Below, piece by piece: positions 1 to 32,932 of a DNA stretch of 52,091 nt. The notes under the pieces were generated by a model. That model had not been told where the DNA came from. It ran no database searches and saw nothing but the letters and a program-made list of their open reading frames with translations. The position numbers and the translations under genes were made by a program. Each line of letters begins with the position of its first letter. Position 1 is the stretch's first letter. This DNA comes from Candidatus Bathyarchaeia archaeon (GTDB taxonomy: Archaea; Thermoproteota; Bathyarchaeia; TCS64): positions 1 to 52,091 of the forward strand of contig JBEKDF010000019.1 in assembly GCA_050014495.1 (NCBI GenBank), written 5' to 3'.

Positions 1-211
1 AACCATTAGCAGAAGTGTGGTAATGAAAGTTGAGATTCCTTTTCTCTTTTTAGTCACGACCATTTTCAAGACCTAATCTAAAGAAAGTTTCAATGTATTT
101 AATTCTTCGGTAACTTATGACCTTACCATTAGTTAGAACTATTTTTCCAATATTCTTAAATGATTTCCGATTTTTTACTATATAGAGAATTTGCTGACAG
201 GTGTAGGATGT

Positions 212-3200
212 ATGTTTAAGAATAATTCTATGTCAAAACATAGGGGTATATCGACTTACATCGCGGTACTCATATTAATAATAATAGCTATCATCGCCGG
301 CCTCTTGATCTACGCGTATACGATGGGTTACATCGGTGGTTTCAATGTCGGTGCTGGCGGAAATGAGCTTCAGATTGAGAGCACATCTCAAACTAATGGC
401 CAACTCTTACTATATGTAAAGAATATTGGTCAAAACTCTCTGAAACTTAACCCCGCAACCCCCTCGAATGCGAGGGTCTATGTTGACGATGTTTCGGTGC
501 TTTATCAAATAAAGGAGCTAGAGTATGCCAATTTACTTCCATCGGGAAGTACTTGCACTATTGGTATTCTCGTTTCACAGACTTGGGTTGGGAACACAGT
601 GCAAGTTAAAGTGGTTGCCGATGATGGAACCTTCGTTGTAACCACTGTTAAAATCAATGTCCCCGATGGGATCAGCCACACTATAACGGCTTCCGCGGGT
701 CCTAATGGTCAGATCAGTCCTTCGGGAACTGTATTTGTCGCAGACGGTGCAAGCGTTACCTTCACCATTACTCCTAATACCCAAGACTTTTACATTTCAA
801 TGGTAACGGTGGATACCCAATCAGTGGGCGCTGTAACCTCCTACACATTCAACTCGGTTACAGGCGACCACTCCATATCTGCTACTTTCGCAGGTGGTCC
901 CTCATTCATTATAACTTCTTCAGTTAGCTCAGGCGGAACAATAAGCCCGCTGGGACAAGTTATGGTCCCATATGGTGGTAGTCAAACATTCACAATTCAG
1001 GCTAATCCTGGATGGTATCTATCTGATGTGCTGATTAATGGCACGGTACACGTAGGCGCTATCGGATCCTATACCTTCACTGGTGTCGAAGCGAATGGTA
1101 TCACCATCGCAGCCACCTTTATCCAAGGAGTCGCACACACAATCACATCCTCGGCAAACACCGGTGGAAGCATTACCCCCCTGGGAACTGTTACGGTACC
1201 AGATGGCGGTAGTCAGGCTTTCACGATCACAGCTGATTCTAGCCATTATATAGCCAATGTAATGGTAGATGGCGTATCCGTTGGTGCAATCGGATCCTAT
1301 ACATTCACAAATGTGATCACTGATCACATCATCGTTGTTACATTCGCAACTGGATCTGCGTACCTGATAACGTCATCAGCTGGAGCGGGCGGGTCGATTT
1401 CTCCACTTGGCTCAGTTTATGTCGTGGCAGGTGGTAGCATATCCTTCACAATTGCGCCAAACACGGGCTACCACATCGTTGACGTGGTTGTCGATACCTA
1501 CTCATATGGCGCAATAAACTCCTATACATTCAGTAATATCAATGGGATTCACACGATAGCAGCCTCCTTTGCACTCAATACATACACCATCACCGTCACA
1601 GCAGGATTACATGGTGCTATAACTCCGGGGACGAGCCAGGTCTCATATGGAAGTAGTAAAGTTTTCACGATAACTGCGGACTCAGGCTATTATGTCGCGG
1701 ATGTCAAGGTGGACGGTGTCTCGATCGGAGCCGTCATGTCCTACACATTCACGAACATAGTAAGCGACCACACACTATCAGCAACATTTGCTTTTGGCCA
1801 CGCCTACACAATCACATCCACGGCTGGAGCCGGTGGTAGCATCAGCCCGTTGGGACCGGTCGCAGTCCCCGATGGCAGCAGCGTGACATTCACAATCAAA
1901 CCTAATTCGGGTTACCACATCGCTGACGTGAAGGTCGACACTGTGTCGGTAGGACTAGTCAATGTTTACACATTCACAAATGTTGCGGCGGATCACACTA
2001 TTGATGCATCCTTCACAGGAACAACGATAACCCACACGATAACATCCTCAGTCGACGCTAACGGTGGAGGCACCATTAATCCATTAGGCAAGGTCACAAT
2101 CCCAGATGGCGGTAGCCAGAGTTATGTGATACAGGCCTCAGGTGGGTATCACGTCAGTGATGTCAAGGTCGATGGCGTCTCCGTCGGAGCCGTAATGACC
2201 TACACATTCAGCAACGTAATCTCAGACCATGTGATAGTCGCTTCGTTTGCCGTAGGGATAGCTCACACTATCACATCATCAGCCGGCGTGGGTGGAACTA
2301 TAGCTCCGCTTGGGCCAGTTGCAGTAGTTGATGGTGGAAGCCAGACCTTTACGATGACCGCAAACTCGGGATACCACATAGTAGACGTCCTGGTTGATGG
2401 GGTCTCGGTTGGGGCGGTTGGAACTTATGGATTCACAGGGGTTACGAAGGATCACACAATATCTGTTGTGTTTTCAACTTTCACTTTCACCATCTCGGCG
2501 TCGGTAGGATCCGGAAGGGGAAGTATTAGCCCGAGTGGAGATGTAGATGTTGCGTATGGCGGAACTCAGACGTTTACAATCACTCCAAGCACGTCTGGTG
2601 GAGGCAATCATGTTAGTGATGTCTTAGTCGATGGTGTATCGGTTGGACCGGTATTATCATATACTTTCACAAATGTACAAGCTGACCACACGATAGTAGC
2701 CTCCTTCTCATCAGGTGCTTCACACACCATCACCTCATCAGCTGGCCCGGGAGGCATAATCTTCCCAGCTGGGTCAATCTCTGTGGGTAACCTTCAGAGT
2801 CAGACATTCACAATAACACCAAATACCGGCTACAGCATCGCCGCAGTCATGGTCGATGGCGTTTCGAAGGGGACAGTAAATACATACACTTTCAGTAGCG
2901 TGACCTCGGATCACACAATATCTGTAACATTCATGCTCAACACAGTGACTATCACTGCTTCAGCTGGTTTGAATGGTGCAATAAGCCCATCGGGCTCAGT
3001 TATTGTACCTTATGGTAGCAGTCAAACATTCACGATCACGGCTAGCACGGGATACCATGTGCAGGATGTATTAGTCGATGGACAAACAGTTGGACCAGTA
3101 ATGTCCTATACATTTTACAACATCATTATCCCGCACACTATCGCAGCATCTTTCGCGTCAGGTACGGCCCACACAATCACATCCTCGGCGGGTCCGGGTG

Positions 3201-6200
3201 GAAAAATTTTCCCACTTGGACCGGTGGCTGTCATTGACGGTGGAAGCCAGACATTCACCATAACACCGAATGCATATTATCAGATCCAGGATGTGAAGGT
3301 CGACGGAGCATCTGTAGGGGCAGTTACAAGCTACCCATTCACTGCTGTTACTAAGGATCATACTATATCCGTAACATTCATTCCAGTCGCGTCTCTGACA
3401 ATAACGGCGACTGCTGGTCCAAATGGCTCCATCAACCCATCTGGGGCCGTTCAAGTATCCTACGGCGGAAGCCAGACCTTCACAATGACGCCTAATAATA
3501 ACTTCCATGTACAGGATGTCCAGGTAGATGGCGTATCCGTCGGAGCCCTAGCATCATATACCTTCAGTAACGTGGTTGCAAGTCACACGATTTCAGTGAC
3601 ATTCACTACTGGGGCACAACACGTTATAACAGCTACAGCGGGTAGCGGTGGGACTATAAGCCCCTCGGGTCAGGTCGTTGTGGCTGATGGTGGAAGCCAA
3701 ACCTTTACGATAACAGCCAATGGAGGATACAAGATAACCGACGTGTTAGTCGATAAAGTATCAGTTGGTGCAGTCGGAACCTATCCGTTCACGGGTGTAA
3801 CTGCTGATCACACAATAGAGGCATCGTTTGCAGTCGTTACTTCCTACACGATAACGGCTTCAGCAGACACCAACGGATCCATCAACCCATCAGGAGCCGT
3901 GTCAGTGAATGTTGGAGCAAGTCAGCCATTCGCAATTAGCGCGAACTCCGGCTATTACATCTTGGATGTGAAGGTTGATGGCTCGTCAGTTGGAGCAGTG
4001 GGCTCATACACCTTCACGAATGTTCAGGCTGATCATATAATCGTAGTGACTACTGCATCCGGACACGCGTACACTATCACATCCTCGTCGACAGCGGGTG
4101 GATCGATCAGTCCACTGGGTCCAGTGTCTGTCCCGGATGGCAAAAGCCAGACATTCACTTTGACCCCCAGCACAGGTTACCGTATATCGGATGTAAAAGT
4201 CGATCAGGTGTCAGTTGGAACTCCCTCGACCTATACATTCTCCAATGTCATTGCTAACCACAGAATAGATGCCTACTTCGCCATTCAGCAGTTCATAATA
4301 ACTGCCTCCGCGGGCGCGAATGGTCAGATTAGCCCGCTCGGCCAGACTACGGTGAATTATGGAGGCAGCCAGTCTTACACCATAACTGCCAACTCGGGAT
4401 ACCACGTGTCCGATGTACTCGTGGACGGAAAATCCGTTGGAGCAGTAGAATCCTACTCCTTCAGTAACGTGGTTGTAGCCCACACAATAGCAGCCTCATT
4501 CGCCTCCGGTGTAGCTCACACAATTACAGCGTCAGCTGGGACAGGTGGCACAATAGCACCGGTCGGCCCAGTCTCAGTAATAGACGCAGGAAGCCAGAGC
4601 TTCACGATTACGGCTAGTGCAGGTTACAAGATAGCTGATGTACTAGTCGACGGCGCCTCAGTGGGAGCTGTGAGTACCTACCAATTCACGGATGTAGTAG
4701 CGGACCACACGATACAAGCGTCTTTCGCAGCCGATACTTACACGCTCACTGTAAATGTATCTGGATCCGGCAGTGTAACAATTCTACCAAAGCAGACATC
4801 CTATGCCTACGGGGCACAGGTTCAGCTAACCGCCATCCCCGCCAACGGCGTGACCTTCACCAGTTGGACTGGCGGAGGCCTAACGGGGAACACCAACCCA
4901 ATAACCGTGACGATAAACTCCAACACAGTAATTACGGCAACGTTCTCCAATGCTCAAGCTACATCTATGGGTTGGTATAGCTGGTCTCCAACAACAGTAA
5001 TTGGCCAGAGCTACCAATCGATTGGCATCCTCACAGCGAGTGGAAATGGTGTATTAAATGGAAAGCTTATCAGAATCCAATTAACAAGGCCCGATGGCAC
5101 GCAGGTCGTCTCAACGACGACTACTGCACTACTTGGATTATTCTATGTTAATGCAGTACCTGATGCGGTAGGAACCTGGACCGTCTATTGTCAGTTCTTA
5201 GGTGACTCCACTTACGGCGCATCGGTTTTAGGACCTAGAACATTCACTGTAACAAAAATGGGATCAACAACCACCTGTTCAGTCTCGCCCCCTGCCGCAA
5301 CTCTTGGCCAGCCAATAACAGTATCAGGTTCGGTTACGCCGGCCTCAGGGTCAGATATATCTGGACAGACAGTAACCTTCACATTCACAGCCCCAGGAGG
5401 CTCCACATTTACTGGCACAGCGACTACTGACTCGAGCGGCGACTACACATATCAGTTTACACCCAATGTTAGTGGTGCTTGGACTGTAGTTGCTAGCTTC
5501 GCGGGTGATCCATCTCACAACCCCTCCACAAGCTCTAGCCAGGCATTCACTGTAAAAGCAAGCGCGACAGTTGCGGCACCATCCTTCACTCCATCGAGTC
5601 CAATCACTGTTGGAACACAGGAGACTCTAACTGCTACCGTCACTGGTTCATCAGGAACTCCGACTGGAACTGTAACCTTCCAATACTCAACGAACGGAGG
5701 AACATCCTGGAGCAACGTTGGCTCAGCCGTCACGCTAAATGGCGGCTCAGCCTCAACAACCTACAATCCAGGTGCTGGTAGCTATGTGTTTAGGGCAACC
5801 TACAACGGTGACTCGACTTACAACAGTGCAACTAGTGTAGCATCTTCAACTCTTGTGGTTAACAAGAACACCATTTCAGTACCAGCCCCAACCTTTTCAC
5901 CCGCAAGTCCAATAGCCCTAGGCCAATCAGTGACTCTGAGTGTGACCATACCCGGTACCCCGACTCCGACTGGAACCGTCCAGTTCCAATACTCTCTTAA
6001 CGGAGGTACTTGGACGAACACTGGCTCGACTGTGACACTTAGCTCAGGCACAGCAACTCGGACTTTCACAGCTTCAAGCACGGGAAGCTACGTCTTCAGG
6101 GTAACCTACAACGGTGACAGCAACTACAATAGCGCAACTGGAGCGACGTCCTCCACACTAGTGGTAGGCAAGGCAAACCCAACAGTACCTGCTCCCACCT

Positions 6201-7120
6201 TCAGCCCATCTAGCCCGATAGCAGTTGGCACTACAGAGACGATCAGAGTCACGATTTCAGGAGGAAGCGGCACACCAACAGGCACTGTAACGTTCCAGTA
6301 CTCTACAGATAGCGGATCCACATGGACTAACTTAGGGTCAGCAGTAAATCTCAGTGGCTCAGGACAAGCATCAACGACGTACACGCCTGCAGCTGGTAGC
6401 TATATATTCCATGCCATCTATAGCGGCGACACTAACTACAATGGTGCAACCGGTGCGGCATCCTCGACTCTAGTCGTTAACCCACCAACACTTACGAACT
6501 TTACATTCAGCTCTACTAGCTCGAAGACGGCTGGAACAGCATTCAGTGAAACAATCACCGCAAAGGACCAGAATGGAAACACTCTCACAAGTTACACAGG
6601 CACAGTTCACTTTACATCAACAGACCCGCAGGCAACTTTACCACCCGACTATACATTCACGACAGCCGATGCTGGTGCGCACACATTCACTAGCGGCTTT
6701 ACACTGAGGACAGCAGGCTCACAGAGAATAACAGTAACCGACGCAGCCGCCAAAGTTTCAACGCAGAGCTCATCAATAACAGTTAATGCCGCAAGTGCAA
6801 CAAAGCTCGTATACACTGCTGGTGCATCTCAGACAATTGCTCACAACGTTAAATCCAGTGTAATTACAGCACAGTTGCAAGATGCATACGGGAACGCAGT
6901 CACTGCAAGTTCAACTGTAACCGTGAACTTTTCAACAACTTCCTCAGGTGGCTATTTCACTTCGACTTCAGGCTCGAGCACACACATAACTTCAAAAACT
7001 ATTACATCTGGTAACGATTCAGTGAACTTCTACTATACAGATGCTAATACTGGATCCCCAACAATAACCGCCTCTAGCAGCGGATTAACTTCGGCACAAA
7101 CAACATTCACAATAACATAA
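212..7120 (+). CDS. Giant pilin-fused surface adhesin: class III signal peptide, archaeal pilin domain, 18+1 InlB-B/bacterial-repeat domains and several Ig-like (Big_3-like) domains
   Basis: N-terminus KHRG|ISTYIAVLILIIIAIIAGLLIY is a type IV prepilin signal. 18 tandem ~77-aa repeats (xTITASAGxGGxISPxG...VxVDGxSVGAVxSYTFxNVxxDHTIxAxF) are followed by TPTGTVTFQYS...YNGDSNY Ig repeats. No C-terminal TM. ATG at 212 or 230 is preferred over TTG at 191. Confidence 0.85.
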   Translation: MFKNNSMSKHRGISTYIAVLILIIIAIIAGLLIYAYTMGYIGGFNVGAGGNELQIESTSQTNGQLLLYVKNIGQNSLKLNPATPSNARVYVDDVSVLYQIKELEYANLLPSGSTCTIGILVSQTWVGNTVQVKVVADDGTFVVTTVKINVPDGISHTITASAGPNGQISPSGTVFVADGASVTFTITPNTQDFYISMVTVDTQSVGAVTSYTFNSVTGDHSISATFAGGPSFIITSSVSSGGTISPLGQVMVPYGGSQTFTIQANPGWYLSDVLINGTVHVGAIGSYTFTGVEANGITIAATFIQGVAHTITSSANTGGSITPLGTVTVPDGGSQAFTITADSSHYIANVMVDGVSVGAIGSYTFTNVITDHIIVVTFATGSAYLITSSAGAGGSISPLGSVYVVAGGSISFTIAPNTGYHIVDVVVDTYSYGAINSYTFSNINGIHTIAASFALNTYTITVTAGLHGAITPGTSQVSYGSSKVFTITADSGYYVADVKVDGVSIGAVMSYTFTNIVSDHTLSATFAFGHAYTITSTAGAGGSISPLGPVAVPDGSSVTFTIKPNSGYHIADVKVDTVSVGLVNVYTFTNVAADHTIDASFTGTTITHTITSSVDANGGGTINPLGKVTIPDGGSQSYVIQASGGYHVSDVKVDGVSVGAVMTYTFSNVISDHVIVASFAVGIAHTITSSAGVGGTIAPLGPVAVVDGGSQTFTMTANSGYHIVDVLVDGVSVGAVGTYGFTGVTKDHTISVVFSTFTFTISASVGSGRGSISPSGDVDVAYGGTQTFTITPSTSGGGNHVSDVLVDGVSVGPVLSYTFTNVQADHTIVASFSSGASHTITSSAGPGGIIFPAGSISVGNLQSQTFTITPNTGYSIAAVMVDGVSKGTVNTYTFSSVTSDHTISVTFMLNTVTITASAGLNGAISPSGSVIVPYGSSQTFTITASTGYHVQDVLVDGQTVGPVMSYTFYNIIIPHTIAASFASGTAHTITSSAGPGGKIFPLGPVAVIDGGSQTFTITPNAYYQIQDVKVDGASVGAVTSYPFTAVTKDHTISVTFIPVASLTITATAGPNGSINPSGAVQVSYGGSQTFTMTPNNNFHVQDVQVDGVSVGALASYTFSNVVASHTISVTFTTGAQHVITATAGSGGTISPSGQVVVADGGSQTFTITANGGYKITDVLVDKVSVGAVGTYPFTGVTADHTIEASFAVVTSYTITASADTNGSINPSGAVSVNVGASQPFAISANSGYYILDVKVDGSSVGAVGSYTFTNVQADHIIVVTTASGHAYTITSSSTAGGSISPLGPVSVPDGKSQTFTLTPSTGYRISDVKVDQVSVGTPSTYTFSNVIANHRIDAYFAIQQFIITASAGANGQISPLGQTTVNYGGSQSYTITANSGYHVSDVLVDGKSVGAVESYSFSNVVVAHTIAASFASGVAHTITASAGTGGTIAPVGPVSVIDAGSQSFTITASAGYKIADVLVDGASVGAVSTYQFTDVVADHTIQASFAADTYTLTVNVSGSGSVTILPKQTSYAYGAQVQLTAIPANGVTFTSWTGGGLTGNTNPITVTINSNTVITATFSNAQATSMGWYSWSPTTVIGQSYQSIGILTASGNGVLNGKLIRIQLTRPDGTQVVSTTTTALLGLFYVNAVPDAVGTWTVYCQFLGDSTYGASVLGPRTFTVTKMGSTTTCSVSPPAATLGQPITVSGSVTPASGSDISGQTVTFTFTAPGGSTFTGTATTDSSGDYTYQFTPNVSGAWTVVASFAGDPSHNPSTSSSQAFTVKASATVAAPSFTPSSPITVGTQETLTATVTGSSGTPTGTVTFQYSTNGGTSWSNVGSAVTLNGGSASTTYNPGAGSYVFRATYNGDSTYNSATSVASSTLVVNKNTISVPAPTFSPASPIALGQSVTLSVTIPGTPTPTGTVQFQYSLNGGTWTNTGSTVTLSSGTATRTFTASSTGSYVFRVTYNGDSNYNSATGATSSTLVVGKANPTVPAPTFSPSSPIAVGTTETIRVTISGGSGTPTGTVTFQYSTDSGSTWTNLGSAVNLSGSGQASTTYTPAAGSYIFHAIYSGDTNYNGATGAASSTLVVNPPTLTNFTFSSTSSKTAGTAFSETITAKDQNGNTLTSYTGTVHFTSTDPQATLPPDYTFTTADAGAHTFTSGFTLRTAGSQRITVTDAAAKVSTQSSSITVNAASATKLVYTAGASQTIAHNVKSSVITAQLQDAYGNAVTASSTVTVNFSTTSSGGYFTSTSGSSTHITSKTITSGNDSVNFYYTDANTGSPTITASSSGLTSAQTTFTIT

Positions 7121-7129
7121 ACTTATAAC

Positions 7130-7141
7130 CACCCTTTTTTT
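7130..7141 (+). terminator. Archaeal oligo-T terminator
   Basis: CACCCTTTTTTT 10 nt after the stop at 7120. Confidence 0.55.
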
Positions 7142-7168
7142 AATACATTCTTCTCGTTTTGCGCGCGC

Positions 7169-8363
7169 ATAAGTGTTCATTAATTCATTTTCGGTCTTAT
7201 TTCTCGAATGAAGCTTTTTCCGAGCCTTAATACGTGAAGGCAGCAATACAGTTTGCAAGCTCCGGCCTCCCTATCTTGTGAGCAGATATCGCGACGGCGT
7301 AGATGCAGGCGAAGCAGATGCCGACGTGCATCCTCACCTTAGCCACCCCTCTCCACCGCAGGTTCTCCATCATCAGCTCAAGCTTACCCGCCTTGAAGCT
7401 CCGCTCCACCGACATCCTCAGCCTGTAGAGACCCACCAGCCTCGGGTCACCCTTAACCCTGAAGCGCTTAGTAAGCCACAGGTCGATCAGCGGCTCCCTC
7501 GCTTGGGACGTGTGCGGGATCACGGGCTCGACCCCCAACGCCTTAACCAATTCGAAGACCTCCGCCGAGTAGTACTGCCTATCCGCTATGACGTGGCTTA
7601 TATGCTTCCCCAGCGGCTTGAGCAGCCGTGGAGCCTCCCTCAGCAGCGGCCTCGCCACGTCCTTATCGTTGACGTTCGCGGCCCTCACCACGTACGTCAG
7701 AGGGAAGGCCTTCATCGAGACGGCGGCGTGGGCCCTCCAGCCGAGCCCGTAGTTCCTCCGGTCGGTCTTGCCGACGCGGGCGCCCCTGTCGCTCTTACCT
7801 CCCTTCCTCCCGCGCCTGGAGTACGCCCTCATGAAGGTGCTGTCCAGGCTGACCTTGACTGCCTCGCCCGGGTCCACTATGCCCACCGCGAGGGCCTGGT
7901 CCCTAAGCTCCCCGAAGAGGCCCTCGATGGCCTCGGGGCCCGCCCTGGCGATGAAGAGGCTGAACGTGTTGTGCTTCGGCGTAGAGTCGCCGAACTCGCA
8001 GATGTCTCGAGCATACTGCCTCCTCTCCAGCCTCCTGCAGAGCTTCCTCACCGATGGTATGGCCTCGAACCGCATGAACATCAGCGAGAGAAGCATGGAG
8101 CGCACGGGAAAGCGTGGCCTGCCCATCCCTGAGTTGGCGTACTTGGCTTCAATCCGGGCGGTAGTGAGGCTTATATCGATGTTTGAGAACAGGAGCTTGA
8201 GGGTGTCAAGGGGGAGGCGTTGGTAGCCGTCTGAAACGGTTTATCACCTCCATCATGACATGTTTTCAAAATTTCCTTGCATCCTCGCCTCTAAATATTT
8301 ATTCACGCCACAAATAGGCTTAATCAGGAGAAAAAGGCCGAAAAATAATTAATGAACACTTAT
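7169..8363 (-). mobile_element. Insertion sequence with DDE transposase (IS5/IS1182-like)
   Basis: Terminal inverted repeats ATAAGTGTTCATTAATT at 7169-7185 and 8347-8363, extending imperfectly inward. Flanked by GCGCGC at 7163-7168 and 8364-8369 (candidate 6-bp TSD). GC-rich interior. Confidence 0.88.
7227..8126 (-). CDS. DDE transposase (DUF772-like N-terminus plus DDE_Tnp_1-like domain); real start probably upstream near 8237
   Basis: GRPRFP, SLDST, IADRQY and YRLRMSVERSF motifs. The frame stays open 37 codons upstream of the ATG. Confidence 0.85.
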   Translation of the reverse strand: MGRPRFPVRSMLLSLMFMRFEAIPSVRKLCRRLERRQYARDICEFGDSTPKHNTFSLFIARAGPEAIEGLFGELRDQALAVGIVDPGEAVKVSLDSTFMRAYSRRGRKGGKSDRGARVGKTDRRNYGLGWRAHAAVSMKAFPLTYVVRAANVNDKDVARPLLREAPRLLKPLGKHISHVIADRQYYSAEVFELVKALGVEPVIPHTSQAREPLIDLWLTKRFRVKGDPRLVGLYRLRMSVERSFKAGKLELMMENLRWRGVAKVRMHVGICFACIYAVAISAHKIGRPELANCIAAFTY

Positions 8364-10587: not shown

Positions 10588-11786
10588 GAGAATTTTGATT
10601 AACCTAGTTTTTTCTCCCCCTCGGTTAAATTTATAGATCAAAGTCGATAGAACAAGTCTCATGGACAACTTCACCTCATACATCCTCAGACAAGCCTACT
10701 AAAAAGCCGCGAGACTAGGAGACAGACTCGCCAAACTCGACCAAGCCATAGACTGGGAAACCTTCAGACCAATAATCAGCGCAATGTACCACAACAACAC
10801 CACCCTAGGCGGAAGACCCAACACTGACGAGGTACTCATGGTGAAGCTCCTCGTCCTCCAGCAGTGGTACAGCCTCAGCGACATGGAGCTCGAAAGGCAG
10901 GCCGCGTACCGACTCGACTTCCAGAACTTCCTCGGGTGGCCCGAGAGGCCACCTGACTACTCGACGGTCTGGCAATTCAGGGAACGCCTAGCAGCCACGA
11001 TGACCGACGCCGCCCTCTGGGCGGAGCTGCAGAGGCAGCTCGACGAGGCTGGCCTCAAGGTGCGCAAGGGTGTGGCCCAGGACGCCTCATTCATCGAGGC
11101 GGATCCCGGCCCCTCGGGGAAGCCGCGTGGCGGTGACGCGTTGACTCGGAGGAGCCGGGATGGGGACTGGGCGAAGAGGCTGAAGGAGTCGTTCTTCGGC
11201 TTCAAGCTGCACGTTAAGACTGATCTCGAGTATGGATTGGCTCGGGCCGTTGAGGCGACCTCGGCGTCTGTGCATGACAGCCGCGTGGATCTGAGTCTGC
11301 CTGGCGAGGTGGTGTATCGCGACAAGGGGTACTTCGGGGTGGAGCCGAGAGGATATGATGCGACGATGAGGCGTGGGGTGCGTGGCCACCCGCTGGGTGA
11401 GGAGGATCGGCTGAGGAATAGGCGGATCGGGTCTAAGCGGAGGCCGGTTGAGAGGACGTTTGCGGTTATCAAGCGGGTGTTCAACGGTGGGCGGGTGTTG
11501 GTTACGTCGCTTCCCAGGGTCCGGGTGAAGCTGGTTTTTACGTGTCTGTGTTTTGATCTGCTTCAGCTGTGCTCGATTGGCTTCGTCTGATAGCGTGAGC
11601 CATCGATCTTTTGCTGGGGGAGGGTGAGTGGGGTGGTTTGGACCCGTTTTGGGGGGTTTTCGTTGTCTTTTTTCGCTGGTTTGCCGTGGTTTTTGGTGTT
11701 CTCGGCGCTTTGCTTCGGTTTTTTCACTCTTTTATAATTGGCTCTTATGAGCTAAAACCACAAAACAGAGGTTATTACGAATCCTC
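10588..11786 (+). mobile_element. IS5-family insertion sequence
   Basis: Imperfect 18-bp TIRs: GAGAATTTTGATTAACCT (10588-10605) vs reverse complement of 11769-11786, GAGGATTCGTAATAACCT (13/18 match). AAAAT direct repeat at 10583-10587 and 11787-11791. Confidence 0.82.
10661..11590 (+). pseudogene. IS5-family transposase with an in-frame TAA at codon 14
   Basis: MDNFTSYILRQAY*KAARLGDRLAKLDQAIDWETFRP is in frame with the 10784 ORF. Motifs GGRP, QDASF, FGFKLH, YRDKGY, RRPVERTF. Confidence 0.8.
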
Positions 11787-12686: not shown

Positions 12687-13196
12687 ATGCAGAGTGAGCG
12701 TCAAACCGAGTTATCTTTTCAAGGCATCGGACGCCAACCCTTCATCCTCATAAGGCATGCCTTCCTTGAAAATATGTTGACACCTATTATCAAATATCTC
12801 CACGCCGCAGGATATCCCATAGTCTACATGATGGGGAGAGAAAGTGGAGTACAGGAAGTTAGACAAATCCGAGATGAACAGGTCACAATTAATAGTCCCC
12901 TGATAAAGATAGAGATGCTGGAAAAGTCACTGAACCGACTCAGCCAAATGGGCTGGGGAAAAATATCCCTCACCCAATACAACGTCACAGACGGCGGAAT
13001 CAACATCAAGATAAAATTCAACCCATTCACGGAGGAATGTAAGACGGAGACCAATGCAAGCTGCACCTTCCTGAGGGGACTAATCGGTGGGATAACCTCA
13101 GAGATACTCGAACAAGACATGCAATTCAGCGACCCAATCTGCCAAGCAACAGAGGACGAGACCTGCCTCCTCCAGCTGAAGGCTACGATGAAATAG
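12687..13196 (+). CDS. V4R (4-vinyl reductase-like) ligand-binding domain protein
   Basis: LSQMGWGKI, NPF, CTFLRGLIGG, CQATEDETC. Confidence 0.85.
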   Translation: MQSERQTELSFQGIGRQPFILIRHAFLENMLTPIIKYLHAAGYPIVYMMGRESGVQEVRQIRDEQVTINSPLIKIEMLEKSLNRLSQMGWGKISLTQYNVTDGGINIKIKFNPFTEECKTETNASCTFLRGLIGGITSEILEQDMQFSDPICQATEDETCLLQLKATMK

Positions 13197-13303
13197 CAGC
13201 CGAGCGTTAAATCCTTCTTTTTTTCACTGGTGCGAGCATTTCTCAAAATTATTGTGTAAGAAGGTTTAACTCGTCCCATCGTCGAAATCAGGCTGGTAAT
13301 TGT

Positions 13304-13624
13304 TTGGAGGATCTAAACGGGATCATTAGAAAGTTCGTGATGAGCGACACGATTCTCGAAGACGAGCTTTCACAGATCAAGGAATTATTGGTCGACATCG
13401 CCAGTAAGAGAACAAAGACATTCATTCTGTGGTTTCAGGGGGTCGAGTCGTCCGAGATGACTCATCGTGAGAGGATCCTGAAAGGTCTCTCCAGTGCTGG
13501 TCTTGTTAATCTCGAGTGGATATTTACGAATCATAACGCGTACATTAAGACGAGGATTACTGAGAAAGGCACCATTCTGATTCAGAATCTCATTGATGTC
13601 ATTCCAAAAGGCCCTATATCTTAA
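13304..13624 (+). CDS. Small winged-helix-like protein
   Basis: LKGLSSAGLV...TRITEKG wing pattern. Confidence 0.6.
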   Translation: MEDLNGIIRKFVMSDTILEDELSQIKELLVDIASKRTKTFILWFQGVESSEMTHRERILKGLSSAGLVNLEWIFTNHNAYIKTRITEKGTILIQNLIDVIPKGPIS

Positions 13625-13668
13625 GGGTCTTAATCTCTTAAATGGTTCATTGAAAGGCGCGCGAATAC

Positions 13669-14106
13669 CTAGCCATTATTCATATTACTAATTGATAGTT
13701 CGCTCTCTCTGTTTATTTTGAAGTTTATGACGACGAAACTAGATATCATTATGAATGGTAGGGCGTAGAAAAAGTTGATTCCATTTGTTAGGTTGAACAG
13801 AACTAGGAGATTCTGCACTGGGCCAGACCACTGTATTATCGCTAATGTATAGAAAACGTTATCAAAAACGGTCTTCCTCGGTATTATTAGATCAAAAGTC
13901 ACGTATGTGAGTACCATTAATGGAATGCCGATTGCTGGGTTAAGCATCATGTTAGACTCGTAATACCCATTTTGGCTATTCAGCATCCATCTAGATATTA
14001 ATGTATCAGTGAGAAAACCAAGCATCGCGATCGTGAGGGTCAGCTTCAGCCTCCCAAAATCTTTGAATGGCAGTCTTTCCCTCACGCTCTGCATGCAGAT
14101 CCCCAA
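13669..14106 (-). CDS. DUF5658-like membrane protein (second paralog)
   Basis: FLTDTLIS...GYYESN motif; multiple TM segments. Confidence 0.6.
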   Translation of the reverse strand: MGICMQSVRERLPFKDFGRLKLTLTIAMLGFLTDTLISRWMLNSQNGYYESNMMLNPAIGIPLMVLTYVTFDLIIPRKTVFDNVFYTLAIIQWSGPVQNLLVLFNLTNGINFFYALPFIMISSFVVINFKINRESELSISNMNNG

Positions 14107-14364
14107 ATAATATGGATTTAAAATACATATTTAAGGGCCTCCGAACCAGTGGTTAGAATTAAGCACGAGTTATTTATTGATAGCGAGAGTAACTGACTAT
14201 GATTAATACGATTCAACTAGCTTGTGCATATTGAGTACGATCGTTACATGCCTACCATTGGATGTCACTATCCATTATTGATTATATTAATCAACACTAA
14301 ACTCCTTATCCTTGATAAGAATCTAGGATATAGTAACATAATCTACAAGTATTAATAAGAACCA

Positions 14365-14616
14365 ATGATTCCAAACTTATATATGCTTAGAAACGAGTTC
14401 GAAGTCAAAGAGGATAAAGAAGCCTTGATTATAACTGAAGTATTGGACGCCCTATCAGATGGGAATTGGCATAACTTCGATGACCTCTTAAAAGAAACGA
14501 ACATGAGCAGGGAAATGGTTCTCCGAGTCGTGAATTTCTTCAGAGACTTCGGCTTCATCGAGATCAGCAATGGCGGCGAGGCCGCTAAGCTAGACAAAGA
14601 TTTCTTGAAACTGTAG
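14365..14616 (+). CDS. Stand-alone small winged-helix protein
   Basis: VLDALSDGNWHNFDDLLKETNMSREMVLRVVNFFRDFGFIEI. Confidence 0.7.
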   Translation: MIPNLYMLRNEFEVKEDKEALIITEVLDALSDGNWHNFDDLLKETNMSREMVLRVVNFFRDFGFIEISNGGEAAKLDKDFLKL

Positions 14617-14618
14617 CC

Positions 14619-14873
14619 TCAGACCATCTTCTGCATCTTATCTAGCTGCCTGAGGAACTCCCTCCCCTTGATCGATAGGGTATACTTGCTTTCGTCCTCG
14701 TTCTTCTCAAGCAAGTCCTTTTCGAGCAGGAAATCCAGGAAGGGATTAAGTCGGTTGAAGTTGAGATTCGACATGTAGACTAGCTTCGTCTTATTAACCC
14801 CGCGGGGATTATCTGCCACCTTTAGTATGTCCTCGATCACTTCTAGTCTGCTGCGATTCTTTCCGATCAACAA
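14619..14873 (-). CDS. Winged-helix regulator (HTH_45/ArnR1-like family)
   Basis: RSRLEVIEDIL...NKTKLVYMSNLNF...YTLSIKGREFL. Confidence 0.85.
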   Translation of the reverse strand: MLIGKNRSRLEVIEDILKVADNPRGVNKTKLVYMSNLNFNRLNPFLDFLLEKDLLEKNEDESKYTLSIKGREFLRQLDKMQKMV

Positions 14874-15159
14874 TGTAACATATTACTCCAGGGTTTAGCA
14901 ATATCCATGGCAGATTCTGATTATTAATAATGTTATGGATTTGAAGATAGATGATAAAGATACATCATTTAACTCATTAAACTGATTATAATAGGAGCAT
15001 TTAATTAGTGCAAATTAGAATGTTGCATTTCTCATTAGCTATTCCATATCATTAATCTATTTTGTGCAAGTAATATAGACATAAAAATATATCTCTATAA
15101 ACGTATTGGTTTCCCAATGAGAAATCCTATACTTTTAAAAACTCATCAAGTTGAAGGGG

Positions 15160-15918
15160 CTAAGCCTTAACGTTTAGCCTCTGAACAACTCCCTTGTTCT
15201 TCCAATATTTGATCAAGCCGACACCTGCGCAAAAGTTAGAAGTCCTCTCAACAACGACCAATGGCACCTTCAACTTGAAGGCAACAGTATTAGTAGACCA
15301 CATGTTGCCATCCTTAATTGTATCAAGGTAACTTGGGAGGAACTGTTCGAGGACACCGACTTCTTTCTCGCTCTGTTCCTTGAGTTTTGCCTCGATGAAG
15401 CTCAGGAACTCCTTGGGGCTCACTGGTTTCATGATGTAAGCATTGGCGCCGAAGTTGAGTGCCTCGACCGCATTATTGAGAGCCGCGTAGCCGGTTATCA
15501 TCATCACAAGTGTTCGTGGGGAGTCTTTTTTTATCCACTTCAATAGGTCGATTCCATTTATGTCGGGGAGATTCAGGTCAAGAAGGGCCATGTTGAAATA
15601 GCCTTCAAGGATCTTCTCCTTCGCTGCCTCCCCATCGAGGGCGCATTCAGCGATGTACCCACTCATTGTAAGGATGTCCTTCATGGTATCGCAAAAAGAC
15701 TCGTCATCATCAACGACCAGAATCCTTTTCTTATCGGCATCCTGAACTTGGCTTACTTGTTGGCTTGTTTTAATATCTTTTATAACGGGATTTTTCATTG
15801 ATTCCGACACCCCACTCACAGCTTTTTTCTCCATCGAAACGACCTTTCTTTTACCCGAAACCCTCACCGTCCCCTTATACCTAGACGCCCTTTTTTTGAC
15901 GGTTTTTCGGTTTGACAC
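15160..15918 (-). CDS. Response regulator: basic N-tail, REC domain, C-terminal small wHTH
   Basis: ILVVDDD, LLDLNLP (phospho-Asp), ITGY and YIMKP are all conserved. GTG start with upstream GAGGT. Confidence 0.9.
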   Translation of the reverse strand: MSNRKTVKKRASRYKGTVRVSGKRKVVSMEKKAVSGVSESMKNPVIKDIKTSQQVSQVQDADKKRILVVDDDESFCDTMKDILTMSGYIAECALDGEAAKEKILEGYFNMALLDLNLPDINGIDLLKWIKKDSPRTLVMMITGYAALNNAVEALNFGANAYIMKPVSPKEFLSFIEAKLKEQSEKEVGVLEQFLPSYLDTIKDGNMWSTNTVAFKLKVPLVVVERTSNFCAGVGLIKYWKNKGVVQRLNVKA

Positions 15919-16138
15919 ACTTCTTACCTCGGTACACTCTCAATACCCTACTTCGTATTACTAATTACCACTATTTGATTCAAATAATGAGTAATTATTT
16001 AAAAAGGTTTGAGGAACGCTGATACATATTCCAAGTATAATATATTCTCAGAATCTGAATCTTCAATTAAATAATAGGAATCCATAATCTCTTTAACAAT
16101 TAAACTGTTAACATAAATCACTAATATAGTGACCACTA

Positions 16139-16312
16139 ATGGCGTCGATGATTATACCCCTAATTGTGTCGATGATATTAGGTGGGGGTCTATATTTTTT
16201 CATCGGTGGTCTACCTCTCGACACTCCTGTTAAGATGATAATAGTGCTAGTTGTCATATTAGCATCCTACACCATCCTCGCAGAGGTATTCCATACTAAA
16301 TATACGTATTAG
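16139..16312 (+). CDS. Small two-TM protein (57 aa), absent from the ORF track
   Basis: MASMIIPLIVSMILGGGLYFFIGGLPLDTPVKMIIVLVVILASYTILAEVFHTKYTY, translated by hand. Confidence 0.6.
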   Translation: MASMIIPLIVSMILGGGLYFFIGGLPLDTPVKMIIVLVVILASYTILAEVFHTKYTY

Positions 16313-16352
16313 TGCTCCTGAGACCTTTAAAACAAGATAATTAGATTTTGTC

Positions 16353-17396
16353 TTGATACCCTTGGCTCAGCGAGTTGAATTATACAAGCGACCAGACGTC
16401 GAAGCCGTGATGAATGCGCTTCTCAGTAAGACTGGCCGGCTTGACCCAGTTTTCGACCTACAATACGGATATAGGTACCCCAATGTCGAGACGGCGATCA
16501 ATAAAGACTCAGATGGAGCCGTTGCACTGCTAGAGGATCTCTATGAGGGAGGGATTCTAGATAGCCAAATCTACGACATGGAGATACGATGCCCGGAGTG
16601 CGGAAGTCCAAACGTCTCAACAAGGTATCTATGCCCGGTCTGTGGATCCTTCCACATCAAGAAGACCATACTCATGGAGCACCTAGACTGTGGGTATCTC
16701 GGAAACTTGACGACATTCGGGGATCCACTAGTCTGTCCAAAATGCGAACAGCCCCTGGTAGAGGGTGCCTATAGAAACGCTGGAAGCATCTATGAGTGCG
16801 CCGACTGCAAAAAGCAGATCGATACCCCCTTCGTGAATCACTGGTGCAGAAACAAGGGAGTCAACTTTAGCTTCGAGAACGCTATCTACCAAGGAAAATT
16901 CTCCTACTTCCCAACCGCGGAGACTAAAGAGGATCTCGAGAGGGGAATTATCTTCATCTCCCCCATCACAAATATCTTCGAGGGATTGGGCCTGAAGCAG
17001 ATGGATGTCCCAAAAATCGTGGGAACATCCGGTGTGGAGCTAACCTTCGACGTCGGCTATCAAGGAGCCGGGAGAAAATACTTCGTCGATATCCTTCAGG
17101 GTAAGGAGCTATTCGGCGAGTTCGATATCCTAAGAGAATATGGCAAGATTACCGACTCTAAGGTGGAAACCTTCGTTCTCGTCCTGCCCGGGCTCGATAA
17201 CAAGGCGACCACAATGGCCAAGTCATACAAAATGAATATGATCGACGCTCCGACAGTCGGTGAGATACACGCGAAACTAACTTCAGCTCTCAGAAACAGT
17301 GGTTTATCCCAGAGTGCTATGTCGGTTCCAAGTCCTAAATCGGATAAGGAAGATAAGAAATCAGAAGAGAAACCTAAGAGTCGTTGGCGAACTTAG
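16353..17396 (+). CDS. TackOD1-like multi-Zn-ribbon protein with C-terminal Mrr/PD-(D/E)XK-like domain
   Basis: CPECGS, CPVCGS, EHLDCGY, CPKC, YECADC, HWC; C-terminal GTSGVELTFDV. Confidence 0.75.
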   Translation: MIPLAQRVELYKRPDVEAVMNALLSKTGRLDPVFDLQYGYRYPNVETAINKDSDGAVALLEDLYEGGILDSQIYDMEIRCPECGSPNVSTRYLCPVCGSFHIKKTILMEHLDCGYLGNLTTFGDPLVCPKCEQPLVEGAYRNAGSIYECADCKKQIDTPFVNHWCRNKGVNFSFENAIYQGKFSYFPTAETKEDLERGIIFISPITNIFEGLGLKQMDVPKIVGTSGVELTFDVGYQGAGRKYFVDILQGKELFGEFDILREYGKITDSKVETFVLVLPGLDNKATTMAKSYKMNMIDAPTVGEIHAKLTSALRNSGLSQSAMSVPSPKSDKEDKKSEEKPKSRWRT

Positions 17397-17648: not shown

Positions 17649-20252
17649 ATGAATAAATTGAATCGAAAAGGGTTAAAACTAATACTCCTGATCTTAATAC
17701 TCTCCTCCAGCGCCTCTATTTCTTATAAAGGCTCAGCCCAAACATTGACTCCGAGGCTGATCATTACACCCGCTATGACATCAATCCCATCTGATGGAAG
17801 GCCTCACCCGGCTCTCTTCATAGGAGTTCAGGACATTTCAGGTAAGCCATATCCGTTATCGCAATCACTCAATGTAACCCTGACAAGCTCTGACTCCAGT
17901 GCAATTAGTCTACCTGGGAGCGTGTTGCTTACACCAGCTTCCTACTACGCCGTGGTAAATGCCTCCAGTAATGTTGGGAGCGGTAAACAGGTTGAGATAA
18001 CCGCATCATCAACAGGATTTCAGTCCACTAAGACTGACATATCTGTTGGTCCCCCCGCTGGGGCTCCCAGTGCTCTCAAGGTCACAATTTTACCAGACGT
18101 TATCTTGCCTGAGGCTGGAAAGCAGGTTGATTTACTGGTCACCCTTGTTGATGGGTATGGTAGCCCAACACCAGCGAGGACGGACTTGAGCATCTCTCTC
18201 TTCTCCTCGAATCCAACTGTGGGTGATACATCAGTCAACACAATCACGATCTTGGCCGGAAGTTACACTGCTAAGACCTCTCTGATGACAACTGGTGCAC
18301 AAGGTACCACCACCATCACGGCTTCCTCGACAAATCTAAAGTCAGACGCCGGTGTTTTAACCGTGAACGGTCCTAAGCCAGTAGAAATTATTCTTTGGGC
18401 ATTGAACACGATGCCTGTAAATGATCAAAGCAACGTCCTATTCGTCGGAGTTGCAGACTCAAATGGGAATCTTGTTAAAACACTTTCCCCCATAACAATC
18501 AAACTTTATTCATCTGATCCAAATGTCGTATCCGTCCAGGACAGTGTCGTGATAAACACTAATCAGTGGCAGGTCATAGTTCCACTAAATTGCCTTGAGG
18601 CTAGCGACGTGACCATCACAGCTGCTGCTGAGAACTTAGCGAGCTCGAAGGTATATATTAGAGGAACAAGCAGTTCCTCTGGAGTAGTTTCGATTAAGAT
18701 CTATCCATTATCAACTAGTTTCCCGGCTGATGAAGCGAATCAGCAAGCAATGCTTGTACAGACAGTAGACCTAAACGGAGCTCCGACTGCTTCAACGGGA
18801 GAAGACCTTGATCTGTTCTCCTCTAGCGTAGGTGTAGCCTCCCCTCAAGCACATGTACAAATTCCCGCAGGGCAATCCGCTGCGCTAGTGTCGGTGACGA
18901 CTAAACTGCCTGGCAATACCATGATTACCGCCGGAAGTCAATTCCATGGATCAGCAACCGCCAATTTAATTTCCTATGCCCCAATTCCAGACAATGTCAA
19001 ACTTGAAACACCACCGATCCCAAACGAAGGCGAGGTTGAAGCATGCTTACTGACTCTGAAGGGAACTATCCCCGCACCTGTGTCTCAGGATACACTTATT
19101 CAACTTGTATCATCTGACACCCAGGTAGGTATCAGCGACGTCGACTCTGTATTATTAAATCAAAAAACGTACATGAAATATCTGAATGTTAAGGGTGGTT
19201 CACCTGGCCAGTTTTCAATAACTGCATCGGCTAGTGGAATTCCATCATCTAAAATAGATTTCACAGTGCTCGACACAAAACCATCTACTTTCAACGTGGT
19301 TGCCATGAGCCCCGCGAAGAATTTTGGTTTCCCGATACTGATCCAGATCTGCAACCTGGGCGGTAACCCCTCTGTAACCTCTGACATAACCCGAATTAAT
19401 GTTGTATCAAGTAATGCCTCAAACATTGAAGTACCTAGCACCGTTGAACTTCAGAGCGATCGGACTGAGATACTCTTCTATGCTAAGGCACTCTCATCGC
19501 AGTTAACCACATTGACAGTCTCCTCACCTGGCTTCAAGTCATCATCTATTCAGCTTATACCATCAGAAACAGCCCTCAAAATGCAGCTTAACGTTGGAAG
19601 CAAGATGCCAATCAATAAACTAGCTAATATCTCAGTAACATTAACCATAAACGACGCTCCAATACAGGGCGCCACCGTGAATTGGAAGGGCACAGGATTA
19701 ACCACAGCAACCTCAGTCACTGACTCTTCAGGAAACGCAAAGAACGGATTCACTCTTACTCAGCAGGAAACTCAACTCGAGGCAACGGTCAACGTCGGCG
19801 GAGGCTATCTAAATGCAACTCAAGACATCCTCGCTGTACCCGATGCATACAATTTAGTGGTATCCGCTAACGTACCAATCTCCGTCGAGGGAAGTGGAAC
19901 CTACAATTATGGTGACACCGTCTCACTCGATGTTCCCTCCGTCGCGCCTATGCCAAGCATACTGGGAATCTTAGGAGGCAAGTACATTTTCAACTCGTGG
20001 GTTGGGACAGCACCTTCGACCAGCAACCATGTTAGCCTAACAATAGACGGTGAGGTGACAGATCTCACTCAGCAAGCGCTGTTTTCATCTGACTATACTA
20101 TGCTCATTGTCTCAGTCGCTTTGATTGCGGTGGTAATACTCGTCGCATTTTTCTTGTATAGGAGGATGAAGAAAAAGAAGGTAGTTGAAAAGCCAAAGGA
20201 CAAAAAACCCATAGCCCCAGTTGTTAAACCAAGCCCAGTCAGGCACCATTGA
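17649..20252 (+). CDS. Secreted Ig-like repeat surface protein with C-terminal membrane anchor
   Basis: Sec-type signal peptide; S/T/V-rich beta repeats (LxSSDxxV); C-terminal TM followed by RRMKKKK. Confidence 0.8.
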   Translation: MNKLNRKGLKLILLILILSSSASISYKGSAQTLTPRLIITPAMTSIPSDGRPHPALFIGVQDISGKPYPLSQSLNVTLTSSDSSAISLPGSVLLTPASYYAVVNASSNVGSGKQVEITASSTGFQSTKTDISVGPPAGAPSALKVTILPDVILPEAGKQVDLLVTLVDGYGSPTPARTDLSISLFSSNPTVGDTSVNTITILAGSYTAKTSLMTTGAQGTTTITASSTNLKSDAGVLTVNGPKPVEIILWALNTMPVNDQSNVLFVGVADSNGNLVKTLSPITIKLYSSDPNVVSVQDSVVINTNQWQVIVPLNCLEASDVTITAAAENLASSKVYIRGTSSSSGVVSIKIYPLSTSFPADEANQQAMLVQTVDLNGAPTASTGEDLDLFSSSVGVASPQAHVQIPAGQSAALVSVTTKLPGNTMITAGSQFHGSATANLISYAPIPDNVKLETPPIPNEGEVEACLLTLKGTIPAPVSQDTLIQLVSSDTQVGISDVDSVLLNQKTYMKYLNVKGGSPGQFSITASASGIPSSKIDFTVLDTKPSTFNVVAMSPAKNFGFPILIQICNLGGNPSVTSDITRINVVSSNASNIEVPSTVELQSDRTEILFYAKALSSQLTTLTVSSPGFKSSSIQLIPSETALKMQLNVGSKMPINKLANISVTLTINDAPIQGATVNWKGTGLTTATSVTDSSGNAKNGFTLTQQETQLEATVNVGGGYLNATQDILAVPDAYNLVVSANVPISVEGSGTYNYGDTVSLDVPSVAPMPSILGILGGKYIFNSWVGTAPSTSNHVSLTIDGEVTDLTQQALFSSDYTMLIVSVALIAVVILVAFFLYRRMKKKKVVEKPKDKKPIAPVVKPSPVRHH

Positions 20253-20882: not shown

Positions 20883-21731
20883 TTGAAAAATGTAATTAAG
20901 GAGCGTAGGGGTGATTCGACAATTGTAGCTACCGTATTATTGATGGCAATAACCCTCTTCTGTATAAGTCTGACGTTAAACTTCGTTCAAACGAGTCTAG
21001 CCAGACACGATGGAGAGAACGACTTCACGCTCTCACAGACCTTCATGAAGAATATTGGACTAAGTGTGGACGATGTCGCTTGGCACCCCGGACAGAGCAA
21101 CACTATCCAATACAGCTCAGAATCAGCTGAGATAAACCTACGGCCGAGTCTCATTCACTACAAAATCGAGGTCTGGAAGGTAGGAGATCACAGCTATTCA
21201 ACGCTAAAAGAATATGACACGGCGGTTCTCTTCTACGATCTCCCGCTAACAAAATATTATCTAGATAACACCTATTTTGATAATATTCTTCCAAGTAATA
21301 TGACTCAGCTCATCCAAAACTCGACAGAGGCCCCAATAACCAGAGTATTTTCTGTGCAGAGGGCTCCAATAGTGGGCGAGAACGCTTACATTAAGACCTG
21401 TGTAGCCTCATTATTCAGAAGCGTTCAGTTTAATATCAATGCTAATGGGGCGAGCACCAGCTATCTAAAGCTGTATTTAGCAAATATGACCTTAGGCCCA
21501 TTAACGACTGCGAACCCCCGCTACATTACTCTGACTGGTAAAAATGTAGGTGCCTCGGTAATTAACAATGTTTTACATTTACGAGTTTCAGTATCGTTCC
21601 CGAGCTCGGTAAGTGGGTACAATTCAACCTTCTTCAACTTCCCAGTTACCAGTCAGACAATAGACTTTCCCATAACTGGGTCGGAAGTCGAGTTATACGT
21701 AGGCACAGTTCAGGTGGGATTCCTAGAGTAG
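20883..21731 (+). CDS. Minor pilin-like protein with class III signal peptide
   Basis: ERRG|DSTIVATVLLMAITL; first gene of a tightly packed operon. Confidence 0.8.
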   Translation: MKNVIKERRGDSTIVATVLLMAITLFCISLTLNFVQTSLARHDGENDFTLSQTFMKNIGLSVDDVAWHPGQSNTIQYSSESAEINLRPSLIHYKIEVWKVGDHSYSTLKEYDTAVLFYDLPLTKYYLDNTYFDNILPSNMTQLIQNSTEAPITRVFSVQRAPIVGENAYIKTCVASLFRSVQFNINANGASTSYLKLYLANMTLGPLTTANPRYITLTGKNVGASVINNVLHLRVSVSFPSSVSGYNSTFFNFPVTSQTIDFPITGSEVELYVGTVQVGFLE

Positions 21732-21742
21732 GTGAAAAGTGA

Positions 21743-22198
21743 TTGGCAAGCGTTGTTACTGAAAATATCATAATCATGATCCCGGTTTTTATCGCGATGA
21801 TGATCTTCGCTCTGGTCGCTAACGCCGTGGCTTCCAACTACTCGATGCAGCAGAGAACACTCATCATTAACAGCGCCGAGAATCAGCTTGCCACAACAAT
21901 ATCCCAGCTTTATTACACCATAAGTCAACAGGATATGCTCCCTTGTAACATCACAAAGTCGACTCCTCTACCTGATCAAATAGATGGGCAAAACTATTCT
22001 GTTAATGGAACGTTAAATGGAAACGTCCTAGCTCTAACATTCAATTTCCCCGGATTAACTGTCTCTGACACCACTCACGTTAACCTAGGCCCGGGTGTGC
22101 ACTGGGACTCCTCCTCAGTGTTTGTCAGCACCAACCGTCAATCGGTTATAGCGATCCAAAAGAAATCATCAGGAGAATTATGGATTAGTTTCAGGTGA
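21743..22198 (+). CDS. Minor pilin-like protein
   Basis: N-terminal VVTENIII plus hydrophobic helix; LPDQIDGQNYSV; AGGTGA SD upstream. Confidence 0.7.
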   Translation: MASVVTENIIIMIPVFIAMMIFALVANAVASNYSMQQRTLIINSAENQLATTISQLYYTISQQDMLPCNITKSTPLPDQIDGQNYSVNGTLNGNVLALTFNFPGLTVSDTTHVNLGPGVHWDSSSVFVSTNRQSVIAIQKKSSGELWISFR

Positions 22199-22203
22199 AA
22201 TAG

Positions 22204-28020: not shown

Positions 28021-28023
28021 TCG

Positions 28024-29370: not shown

Positions 29371-29371
29371 T

Positions 29372-31330: not shown

Positions 31331-31535
31331 TAAAATACAATTCGCAAACTAAAGCGGCGCGTGTGCATTACCCTGCAACTTAGTAAATATCCAAACAATG
31401 TCCAACTAATAATTTTTCGAGTCTAAATAATAGCCAATACAGTATTTTTTAATTTCGAATACTTACGATCCTTAACCATATTAATTTCATCAAACAAGAA
31501 AAAACAGATTTTTAAAAAAAATCTTTACGTGTAAA

Positions 31536-32836: not shown

Positions 32837-32837
32837 A

Positions 32838-32873: not shown

Positions 32874-32932
32874 AAGGTAATCGCAGAGTCTAGTGAGAAT
32901 GTCCTGACAAAAAATAGAGATGAAGTGAATCA

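Follow-up and report, generated by a model that had tools for sequence, protein, structure and literature searches.

Modular pilins, in which additional non-pilus domains are grafted C-terminal to a pilin module, were defined in bacteria by a survey of 1,219 proteins (Raynaud et al. 2021, PMC8179133), with PilB and PilC of Streptococcus sanguinis as the precedent (PMC8179133, PMC9934059). In the available parts of that survey, the most extreme case named in the text has 860 residues and 12 repeats, archaea are not mentioned, and Dataset S1 contains pilins with up to four IPR013378 or three IPR044060 copies. In accounts likewise available in part, Aap-like and subsystem 4A systems are both reported in Bathyarchaeota, and large proteins with immunoglobulin (Ig) folds or DUF2341 domains are described near archaeal type IV filament loci (PMC13705601, PMC4858521). 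Here we describe a gene that encodes a predicted giant pilin, located at positions 212-7120 of a 52,091-nucleotide stretch of DNA (contig JBEKDF010000019.1, assembly GCA_050014495.1; the whole stretch is hereafter termed the window) from a Candidatus Bathyarchaeia archaeon. Bathyarchaeia rank with the most abundant microbes in anoxic sediments and in peat and, to our knowledge, almost nothing is known of how they attach to substrates or partners. Judged from its sequence, the giant pilin belongs to a large family of modular pilins with exchangeable stalks in Bathyarchaeia, of which it is the longest representative seen. A widespread family of pilin-headed stalks with exchangeable cargo is a concrete, testable candidate for a means of attachment in these organisms.

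As in PilB/PilC-type proteins, a class III signal and a pilin module are followed by extra C-terminal domains, there is no second anchor and the gene lies with a pilus operon. The giant pilin differs from the bacterial modular pilins, as far as the available parts of their descriptions go, in its archaeal fold, its major-pilin-like head, its 26 extra domains, its length of 2,302 amino acids (aa) and the absence of a recognised ligand-binding module, and in being known from sequence alone. The pilus operon that adjoins the giant pilin gene, most of which lies on a separate contig (C23), resembles Aap-like/subsystem 4A filaments in gene content, with a PilA-like major pilin, an ATPase and two TadC proteins. 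The components described in the available parts of the Aap-like/4A accounts are either separate proteins resembling adhesins or pilin-like ones of ~250-550 aa, whereas in the giant pilin a major-pilin-type head is joined to a stalk that exceeds 2,000 residues. Tandem small beta domains, a predicted projecting rod and a variable repeat number are also features of fibrillar adhesins and Periscope proteins, as described in the part of that literature available (PMC8201768), but the giant pilin is anchored through its N-terminal pilin rather than its C-terminus and its repeats are old. The reading we favour, with a probability of about 0.58, is that of a modular pilin, likely cleaved by prepilin peptidase and likely a minor subunit of the pilus encoded by the neighbouring C23 operon, with the stalk projecting as a predicted adhesive arm.

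Organization of the giant pilin gene

The gene is a single unbroken open reading frame (ORF) on the + strand, the longest in the genome, which encodes 2,302 aa counted from the ATG at 212; alternative starts are a TTG at 191, upstream, and an internal ATG at 230. Contigs from sequencing run X5 tile positions 1-7300 of the window with at most one differing letter per main piece and with no insertion or deletion within the gene, and the ORF is therefore not an assembly artefact. A protein identical to the giant pilin is encoded in a 151-kb metagenome contig (L039). The eight best dataset matches of the DNA are peat metagenomes, four of them marked as possible sources, and there are no RNA datasets among the dataset matches listed. 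The gene is organized as follows:

212-247, + strand: class III leader peptide with Arg-Gly at its end; cleavage predicted at 247/248; weak TIGR02537 match
248-670, + strand: complete archaeal type IV pilin module, hydrophobic helix and beta-sandwich head, as predicted by AlphaFold2, Foldseek and phmmer
674-4738, + strand: stalk of 18 tandem all-beta repeats of ~75 aa (repeat profile and structural model), leaning towards divergent InlB B-repeats in sequence
4739-4954, + strand: PF18998 (Flg_new_2, divergent InlB B-repeat) domain
4964-6463, + strand: five bacterial Ig-like domains, one weak and four with Big_3_5/Big_1 matches (Pfam)
6464-7120, + strand: two distal beta domains, one without a Pfam match and one with a weak Invasin_D3/Big_1 match; stop codon at 7118-7120

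The leader has 12 residues that end K-H-R-G and are followed by I-S-T-Y. This fits a FlaFind-like motif scan, which also flags three other ORFs, all in the window's downstream pilus cluster; TIGR02537 gives a weak match (16.8 bits, cut-off 20). A short basic leader ending in G or A, followed by a hydrophobic tract of ~20 residues, is thus present as in other class III signals. The sole segment of transmembrane strength begins at residue 17 (Kyte-Doolittle 3.2). Over the whole protein the second-best hydropathy window reaches just 1.6, and there is therefore no C-terminal transmembrane segment and no second hydrophobic segment; the distal end (6464-7120) also has no sorting signal. A preliminary description of the window had proposed a ~2300-aa pilin with a class III signal and no other anchor, and suggested that the N-terminus be checked for a cleavage motif; the class III site predicted after Arg-Gly, the complete pilin domain and the single hydrophobic segment bear this out.

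An AlphaFold2 model of the head, based on a 21-row alignment, has the N-terminal helix and beta-sandwich globular domain of archaeal pilins with a predicted local distance difference test (pLDDT) value of 88. In a Foldseek search with this model, the Pyrobaculum type IV pilus structure 8fk7 ranked first, followed by FlaG/FlaF and then by Sulfolobales pili, and phmmer aligned the head with 8fk7 at E 4.4e-6. The structure prediction asked for by the preliminary description therefore recovered an archaeal pilin fold and, by model and sequence, the head is a true archaeal type IV pilin domain. Its closest matches in both sequence and fold, the flagellar-like type IV pilin of Pyrobaculum calidifontis (8fk7) and the Sulfolobales pilins 6nav and 8q30, are proteins of ~130-145 aa that, unlike the giant pilin, have no stalk. 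Genes for the processing and assembly machinery are all present in the genome: one candidate prepilin peptidase, on C18 (Arc_PepC_II, 49 bits with a cut-off of 29.9; Peptidase_A24 below its cut-off), two secretion ATPases and four TadC proteins.

Structure of the stalk

The preliminary description estimated about 26 tandem beta domains, and 26 is the number obtained: 18 repeats of ~75 aa, one PF18998 domain and seven larger domains, all additional to the pilin module and C-terminal to it. The 18 repeats span aa 155-1509, and a hidden Markov model built from them recovers 18/18; among themselves they have 40-72% aa and 52-68% nucleotide identity. The PF18998 domain occupies aa 1510-1581 (E 3.9e-16). 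When the whole giant pilin is scanned, PF18998 passes at five stretches and is clear for domain 19, whereas two single short repeats scanned alone against Pfam both had no match. Atlas clusters near the short repeats carry PF18998, although weakly by the Atlas's own recognition score. A model of three repeats has a pLDDT of 96, with low template modelling score matches only in Foldseek, and neither the repeats nor the tail had a significant sequence match in the PDB. Of the last seven domains, four match Big_3_5, two match Big or invasin families weakly and one has no match. From these sequence comparisons, 19 of the 26 domains, the 18 repeats and the PF18998 domain, lean towards divergent InlB B-repeats, and an Ig-like label appears supported for the last seven domains only. 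The "Ig-repeat" of the preliminary description is consequently apt for those seven domains and loose for the 19 short repeats. IPR013378 and IPR044060, the entries found in bacterial pilins, are presumably those of InlB B-repeat/Flg_new domains.

The number of repeats per reading frame varies from 3 to 18 among relatives. In Periscope proteins, length can change rapidly through DNA repeats that are long and highly identical; here, with repeats 52-68% identical in nucleotides and therefore old, rapid length switching is not expected. No well-supported joint that skips repeats of the giant gene was present in the sequencing runs examined. Apparent variants in repeat number, obtained from joints in these runs, were dropped as their sides were short or were repeats of other organisms.

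The same repeats are found in two other settings. A 768-aa protein encoded on C4 (L006:5448-7754, +) starts with a helix and continues through a low-complexity linker into the short repeats and PF18998 domains, with no pilin head. In a second protein (L061:5813-7552, +; G009:C76), of at least 580 aa and open at the contig end, the repeats follow a different class III N-terminus, apparently a further, independent fusion.

Neighbouring pilus operon across the contig break

The window begins within a second type IV pilus operon, divergent from the giant pilin gene:

1-63, - strand: 5' end of the major pilin gene of the second type IV pilus operon, the remainder of which is on C23 (end overlap, L039 and bridging contigs)
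64-211, no strand: divergent intergenic region of 148 bp, AT-rich, with a TATA-like palindrome at 179-184

The C23 operon encodes a major pilin, two minor pilins, an ATPase, two TadC proteins, TackOD1 and V4R. Its major pilin gene is cut at the contig end, and positions 1-63 of the window encode the missing N-terminus. The last 40 nucleotides of C23 are positions 1-40 of the window at 39/40, a match made by no other contig end, L039 runs from C23:36187-46065 (100%) into the window's contig (C19:1-10201, 99.99%), and the junction is bridged by contigs of all four further runs. The giant gene therefore lies 148 bp from the C23 major pilin gene, in head-to-head orientation, and its product is likely carried on that pilus. 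The head of the giant pilin is 31% identical to the C23 major pilin over 159 columns, the whole head length (E 2e-17). The C23 ATPase is 40% identical to that of the window's own pilus cluster. At base 21, within the overlap where the assembly broke, the window differs from C23, with which L039 agrees, and the difference alters one codon in the helix of the major pilin. Next to the C23 operon (L002:1972-6176) there are genes for a GT2 glycosyltransferase, two polysaccharide deacetylases and a UDP-sugar dehydrogenase, by annotation a possible exopolysaccharide cluster beside the adhesion genes.

Synteny and phylogeny of the head

In two further genomes of its genus, the link to an operon of the C23 type is retained. 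In G005 (G005:C153), a 68%-identical orthologue is head-to-head with the same type of pilin, the first minor pilin being next in line. Two modular pilins of G016, one of 859 aa and the other a frame-broken repeat giant, are encoded within the orthologous operon (ATPase 78% identical) on the same strand, between the major and minor pilins. The latter gene (L028:5497-10404, -; G016:C11) is split over three reading frames, probably by insertions or deletions in the assembly. Synteny in related metagenome-assembled genomes (MAGs), which the preliminary description proposed as a check, is kept in these two with the C23-type operon.

The preliminary description assigned display of the giant pilin to a different filament, encoded within the window about 14 kb away:

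20883-36322, + strand: window pilus cluster, with minor pilins, pilin 32390, an ATPase and two TadC proteins

The likeness to pilin 32390 on which it drew is real (37% identity over 68 aa, E 1e-9), though weaker than that to the C23 major pilin. In a tree of 40 heads, the giant pilin falls in a clade of 14 rows (support 100/99) with the pilin type of the C23 operon and without pilin 32390. A clade of giant-type heads plus pilin 32390, a long branch, is rejected by the approximately unbiased (AU) test (p 0.0025) and, with the gene adjoining the other operon, the proposed display on the window's pilus is not supported. Over the first 30 mature residues, all seven giant-type heads match the C23 pilin better than pilin 32390; for the giant pilin the values are 18/30 and 14/30. 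The tree left out the C14 pilin and the L021 and L038 pilins, which failed a pattern filter, and both this AU test and a second one, described below, were run after the tree had been seen. L028_10317, a 90-aa head that is the frame-broken start of a long protein, was treated as short in the tree and as modular in the test of modular heads.

Two other proteins encoded in the genome contain related domains. The C20 paralogue, a same-clade protein of 343 aa, has a class III head and one non-repeat C-terminal domain without a Pfam family. In a 460-aa protein of C17 (L004:6755-8137, -) the beta domain of the pilin head is internal, after a membrane helix and a coiled coil, and is fused to a metallophosphoesterase.

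A family of modular pilins in Bathyarchaeia

Of 401 genomes of the class, 142 have matches to a profile built from eight heads, and most of these matches are short pilins of the ordinary kind. The matches listed include 13 open frames of more than 800 codons, in 12 genomes, the giant pilin being the longest. In a library clustered at 50%, the head profile identified 1,057 proteins at E ≤0.001. Among the best 150 of these, 107 have at least 250 aa and 12 at least 1,000 aa, with a maximum of 1,838; a class III motif is present in 91 of the 107, and none of the 107, some of which may be incomplete, has a hydrophobic window of at least 2.0 after residue 200. Thirty-five proteins, 32 of the 34 with at least 700 aa plus three shorter ones, were scanned for domains: 18 have PF18998 and five PKD, others have cadherin-like, He_PIG or Big domains, and seven have no match. 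A word-index search with the head identified no protein shorter than 1,266 aa among 922 candidates, a limit of sensitivity since such shorter relatives were found by the profile search.

In one family (f11), six of eight large pilins examined are encoded within ~25 kb of a pilus operon, five of them within 3 kb when the nearest modular pilin per locus is taken, and two have no operon in the stretch examined. Their helices match that of the local major pilin at 22-30 of 30 residues over seven scored pairs. A single clade of all modular heads is rejected by the second AU test (p 0.0043), which points to at least two origins of these heads from, or homogenisation with, different major pilins. A full-text literature search, with most subscription journals outside its coverage, returned no published description of giant pilin-stalk fusions in Bathyarchaeia, and the giant pilin is the largest member seen of an archaeal family that is apparently unpublished.

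Proposed mechanism and alternatives

Support for carriage on the C23 pilus comes from the architecture of the giant pilin, its lack of a second anchor, the adjacency of the genes, the kinship of the head with the type of pilin in the C23 operon and a genome that encodes peptidase, ATPase and TadC proteins. The protein would be exported by Sec and cleaved after Arg-Gly by the cell's prepilin peptidase. Its N-terminal helix would wait in the membrane and then be polymerised with the neighbouring major pilin, packed into the core of the filament. The stalk would form a rod of ~90-100 nm, by our own estimate from 26 domains of ~3.5-4 nm, and its distal domains, or the avidity of its repeats, would bind surfaces or partner cells. 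If so, the modular-pilin principle, itself already known, extends to archaea, at 26 domains and far past the cases named in the bacterial survey. How a type IV machine polymerises, and the surface layer (S-layer) lets pass, a subunit of ~230 kDa is a question that this raises.

Several observations weigh against such carriage. FlaF and FlaG, which are pilin-like and membrane-anchored, hold ranks 2-5 in the fold search with the head, and no lectin, vWA or other known ligand-binding domain was detected in the stalk by Pfam scans. Several family f11 pilins match the first 30 residues of the giant pilin at 18/30, equal to its C23 neighbour. The second same-clade head of the genome, on C20 (L003:7926-8957, +), is stand-alone. 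In G007 (88% complete), which has a same-clade head, only a machine of the window type was found (ATPase 66% identical to that at 32933), and the fragmented MAG G001 has a dissimilar TadC only and no ATPase over the cut-off. Both genomes are fragmented at the pilus-machine genes, and a true absence of the ATPase from G001 was not accepted, its TadC gene being at the first bases of a 3.2-kb contig. The preliminary description would have been contradicted by homologs in genomes without the machinery; peptidase and TadC genes are present in all four same-genus genomes with close heads. In the available part of its description, cultivated Bathyarchaeum tardum has no pili or other appendages, although its gene content was not compared (PMC10477458).

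The main rival, which we regard as doubtful, is a membrane-anchored fibrillar surface protein, with the class III helix, cleaved or not, tethering the stalk, a role suggested for FlaF/FlaG or for sugar-binding proteins with class III signals; at ~90-100 nm, the rod would clear the S-layer without a pilus. The FlaF/FlaG fold matches are consistent with this, as are the stand-alone same-clade heads of C20, G001 and G007, the internal head domain of the 460-aa phosphoesterase and, on C4, the repeats that follow a non-pilin N-terminus. Binding proteins of class III are widely distributed among archaea, with their incorporation put forward as a hypothesis in the part of the account available (PMC13705601). 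Against a tether stand the retention of the entire globular pilin domain rather than the helix alone and the close linkage to pilus operons in three genomes of the genus and at six of the eight f11 loci examined. In relatives, moreover, as many as 29-30 of the 30 helix residues scored match those of the major pilin, which suggests selection for co-assembly. It is very unlikely that the giant pilin is a pilus subunit that is promiscuous or is served by the window's machine (ATPase 32933, TadC 34575/35468): homology of the head to pilin 32390 and the machine of G007 could be so explained, but the giant gene adjoins the other operon, the grouping with the long-branched pilin 32390 is rejected, and the window cluster has large minor pilins of its own.

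Overlapping with all of these, the stalk might be a non-adhesive spacer or structural element, for cell spacing, a sheath or a matrix scaffold. The lack of a detected ligand-binding domain would fit, an orthologue (P0003, which may be incomplete) stops after the first Ig-like domain, and B-repeats were originally regarded as spacers, according to the part of the source available (PMC12415215). We consider this distinctly unlikely, as relatives end in varied non-repeat domains, as expected of exchangeable tips, and Flg_new proteins have been proposed as adhesins in other archaea in the available part of a further report (PMC9723798). A bolder form of carriage on the C23 pilus, unlikely as it stands, is that of bottle-brush pili, in which duplicated heads of the major-pilin type, joined on at least two separate occasions to exchangeable stalks as long as 2,150 residues, would be inserted along the shaft and not only at its tip. 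Each filament would then have side arms of ~100 nm with swappable surface-binding tips, and would serve these archaea as a platform for display, by which cells attach to syntrophic partners or to particles of plant origin.

Other genes in the window

Within the window's own pilus cluster, a 1,938-aa protein (22204-28020, +) contains DUF2341 and a split LamG-like domain with inserted beta-propeller repeats, and is from its domains a candidate tip adhesin of the window pilus. The neighbouring ORFs at 20883 and 29372 have class III-like signals. Just upstream of the cluster, the ORF at 17649-20252 (+) encodes a surface protein of 867 aa with Ig repeats and a membrane helix at its C-terminus; a split homologue of this protein adjoins the C23-type operon in G015. 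TackOD1 and V4R genes are located near both pilus operons (window 12687-17396; L002:6967-8791), in the window together with a response regulator, and a similar TackOD1/V4R set flanks the operons of G007, G015, G013 and G016, which suggests a regulatory module common to pilus operons. Two DDE transposase genes and an IS605 TnpB-like gene are present at 7227-8126 (-), 10784-11590 (+) and 37201-38391 (+), and one of the DDE transposase genes begins ~100 bp past the stop codon of the giant pilin gene.

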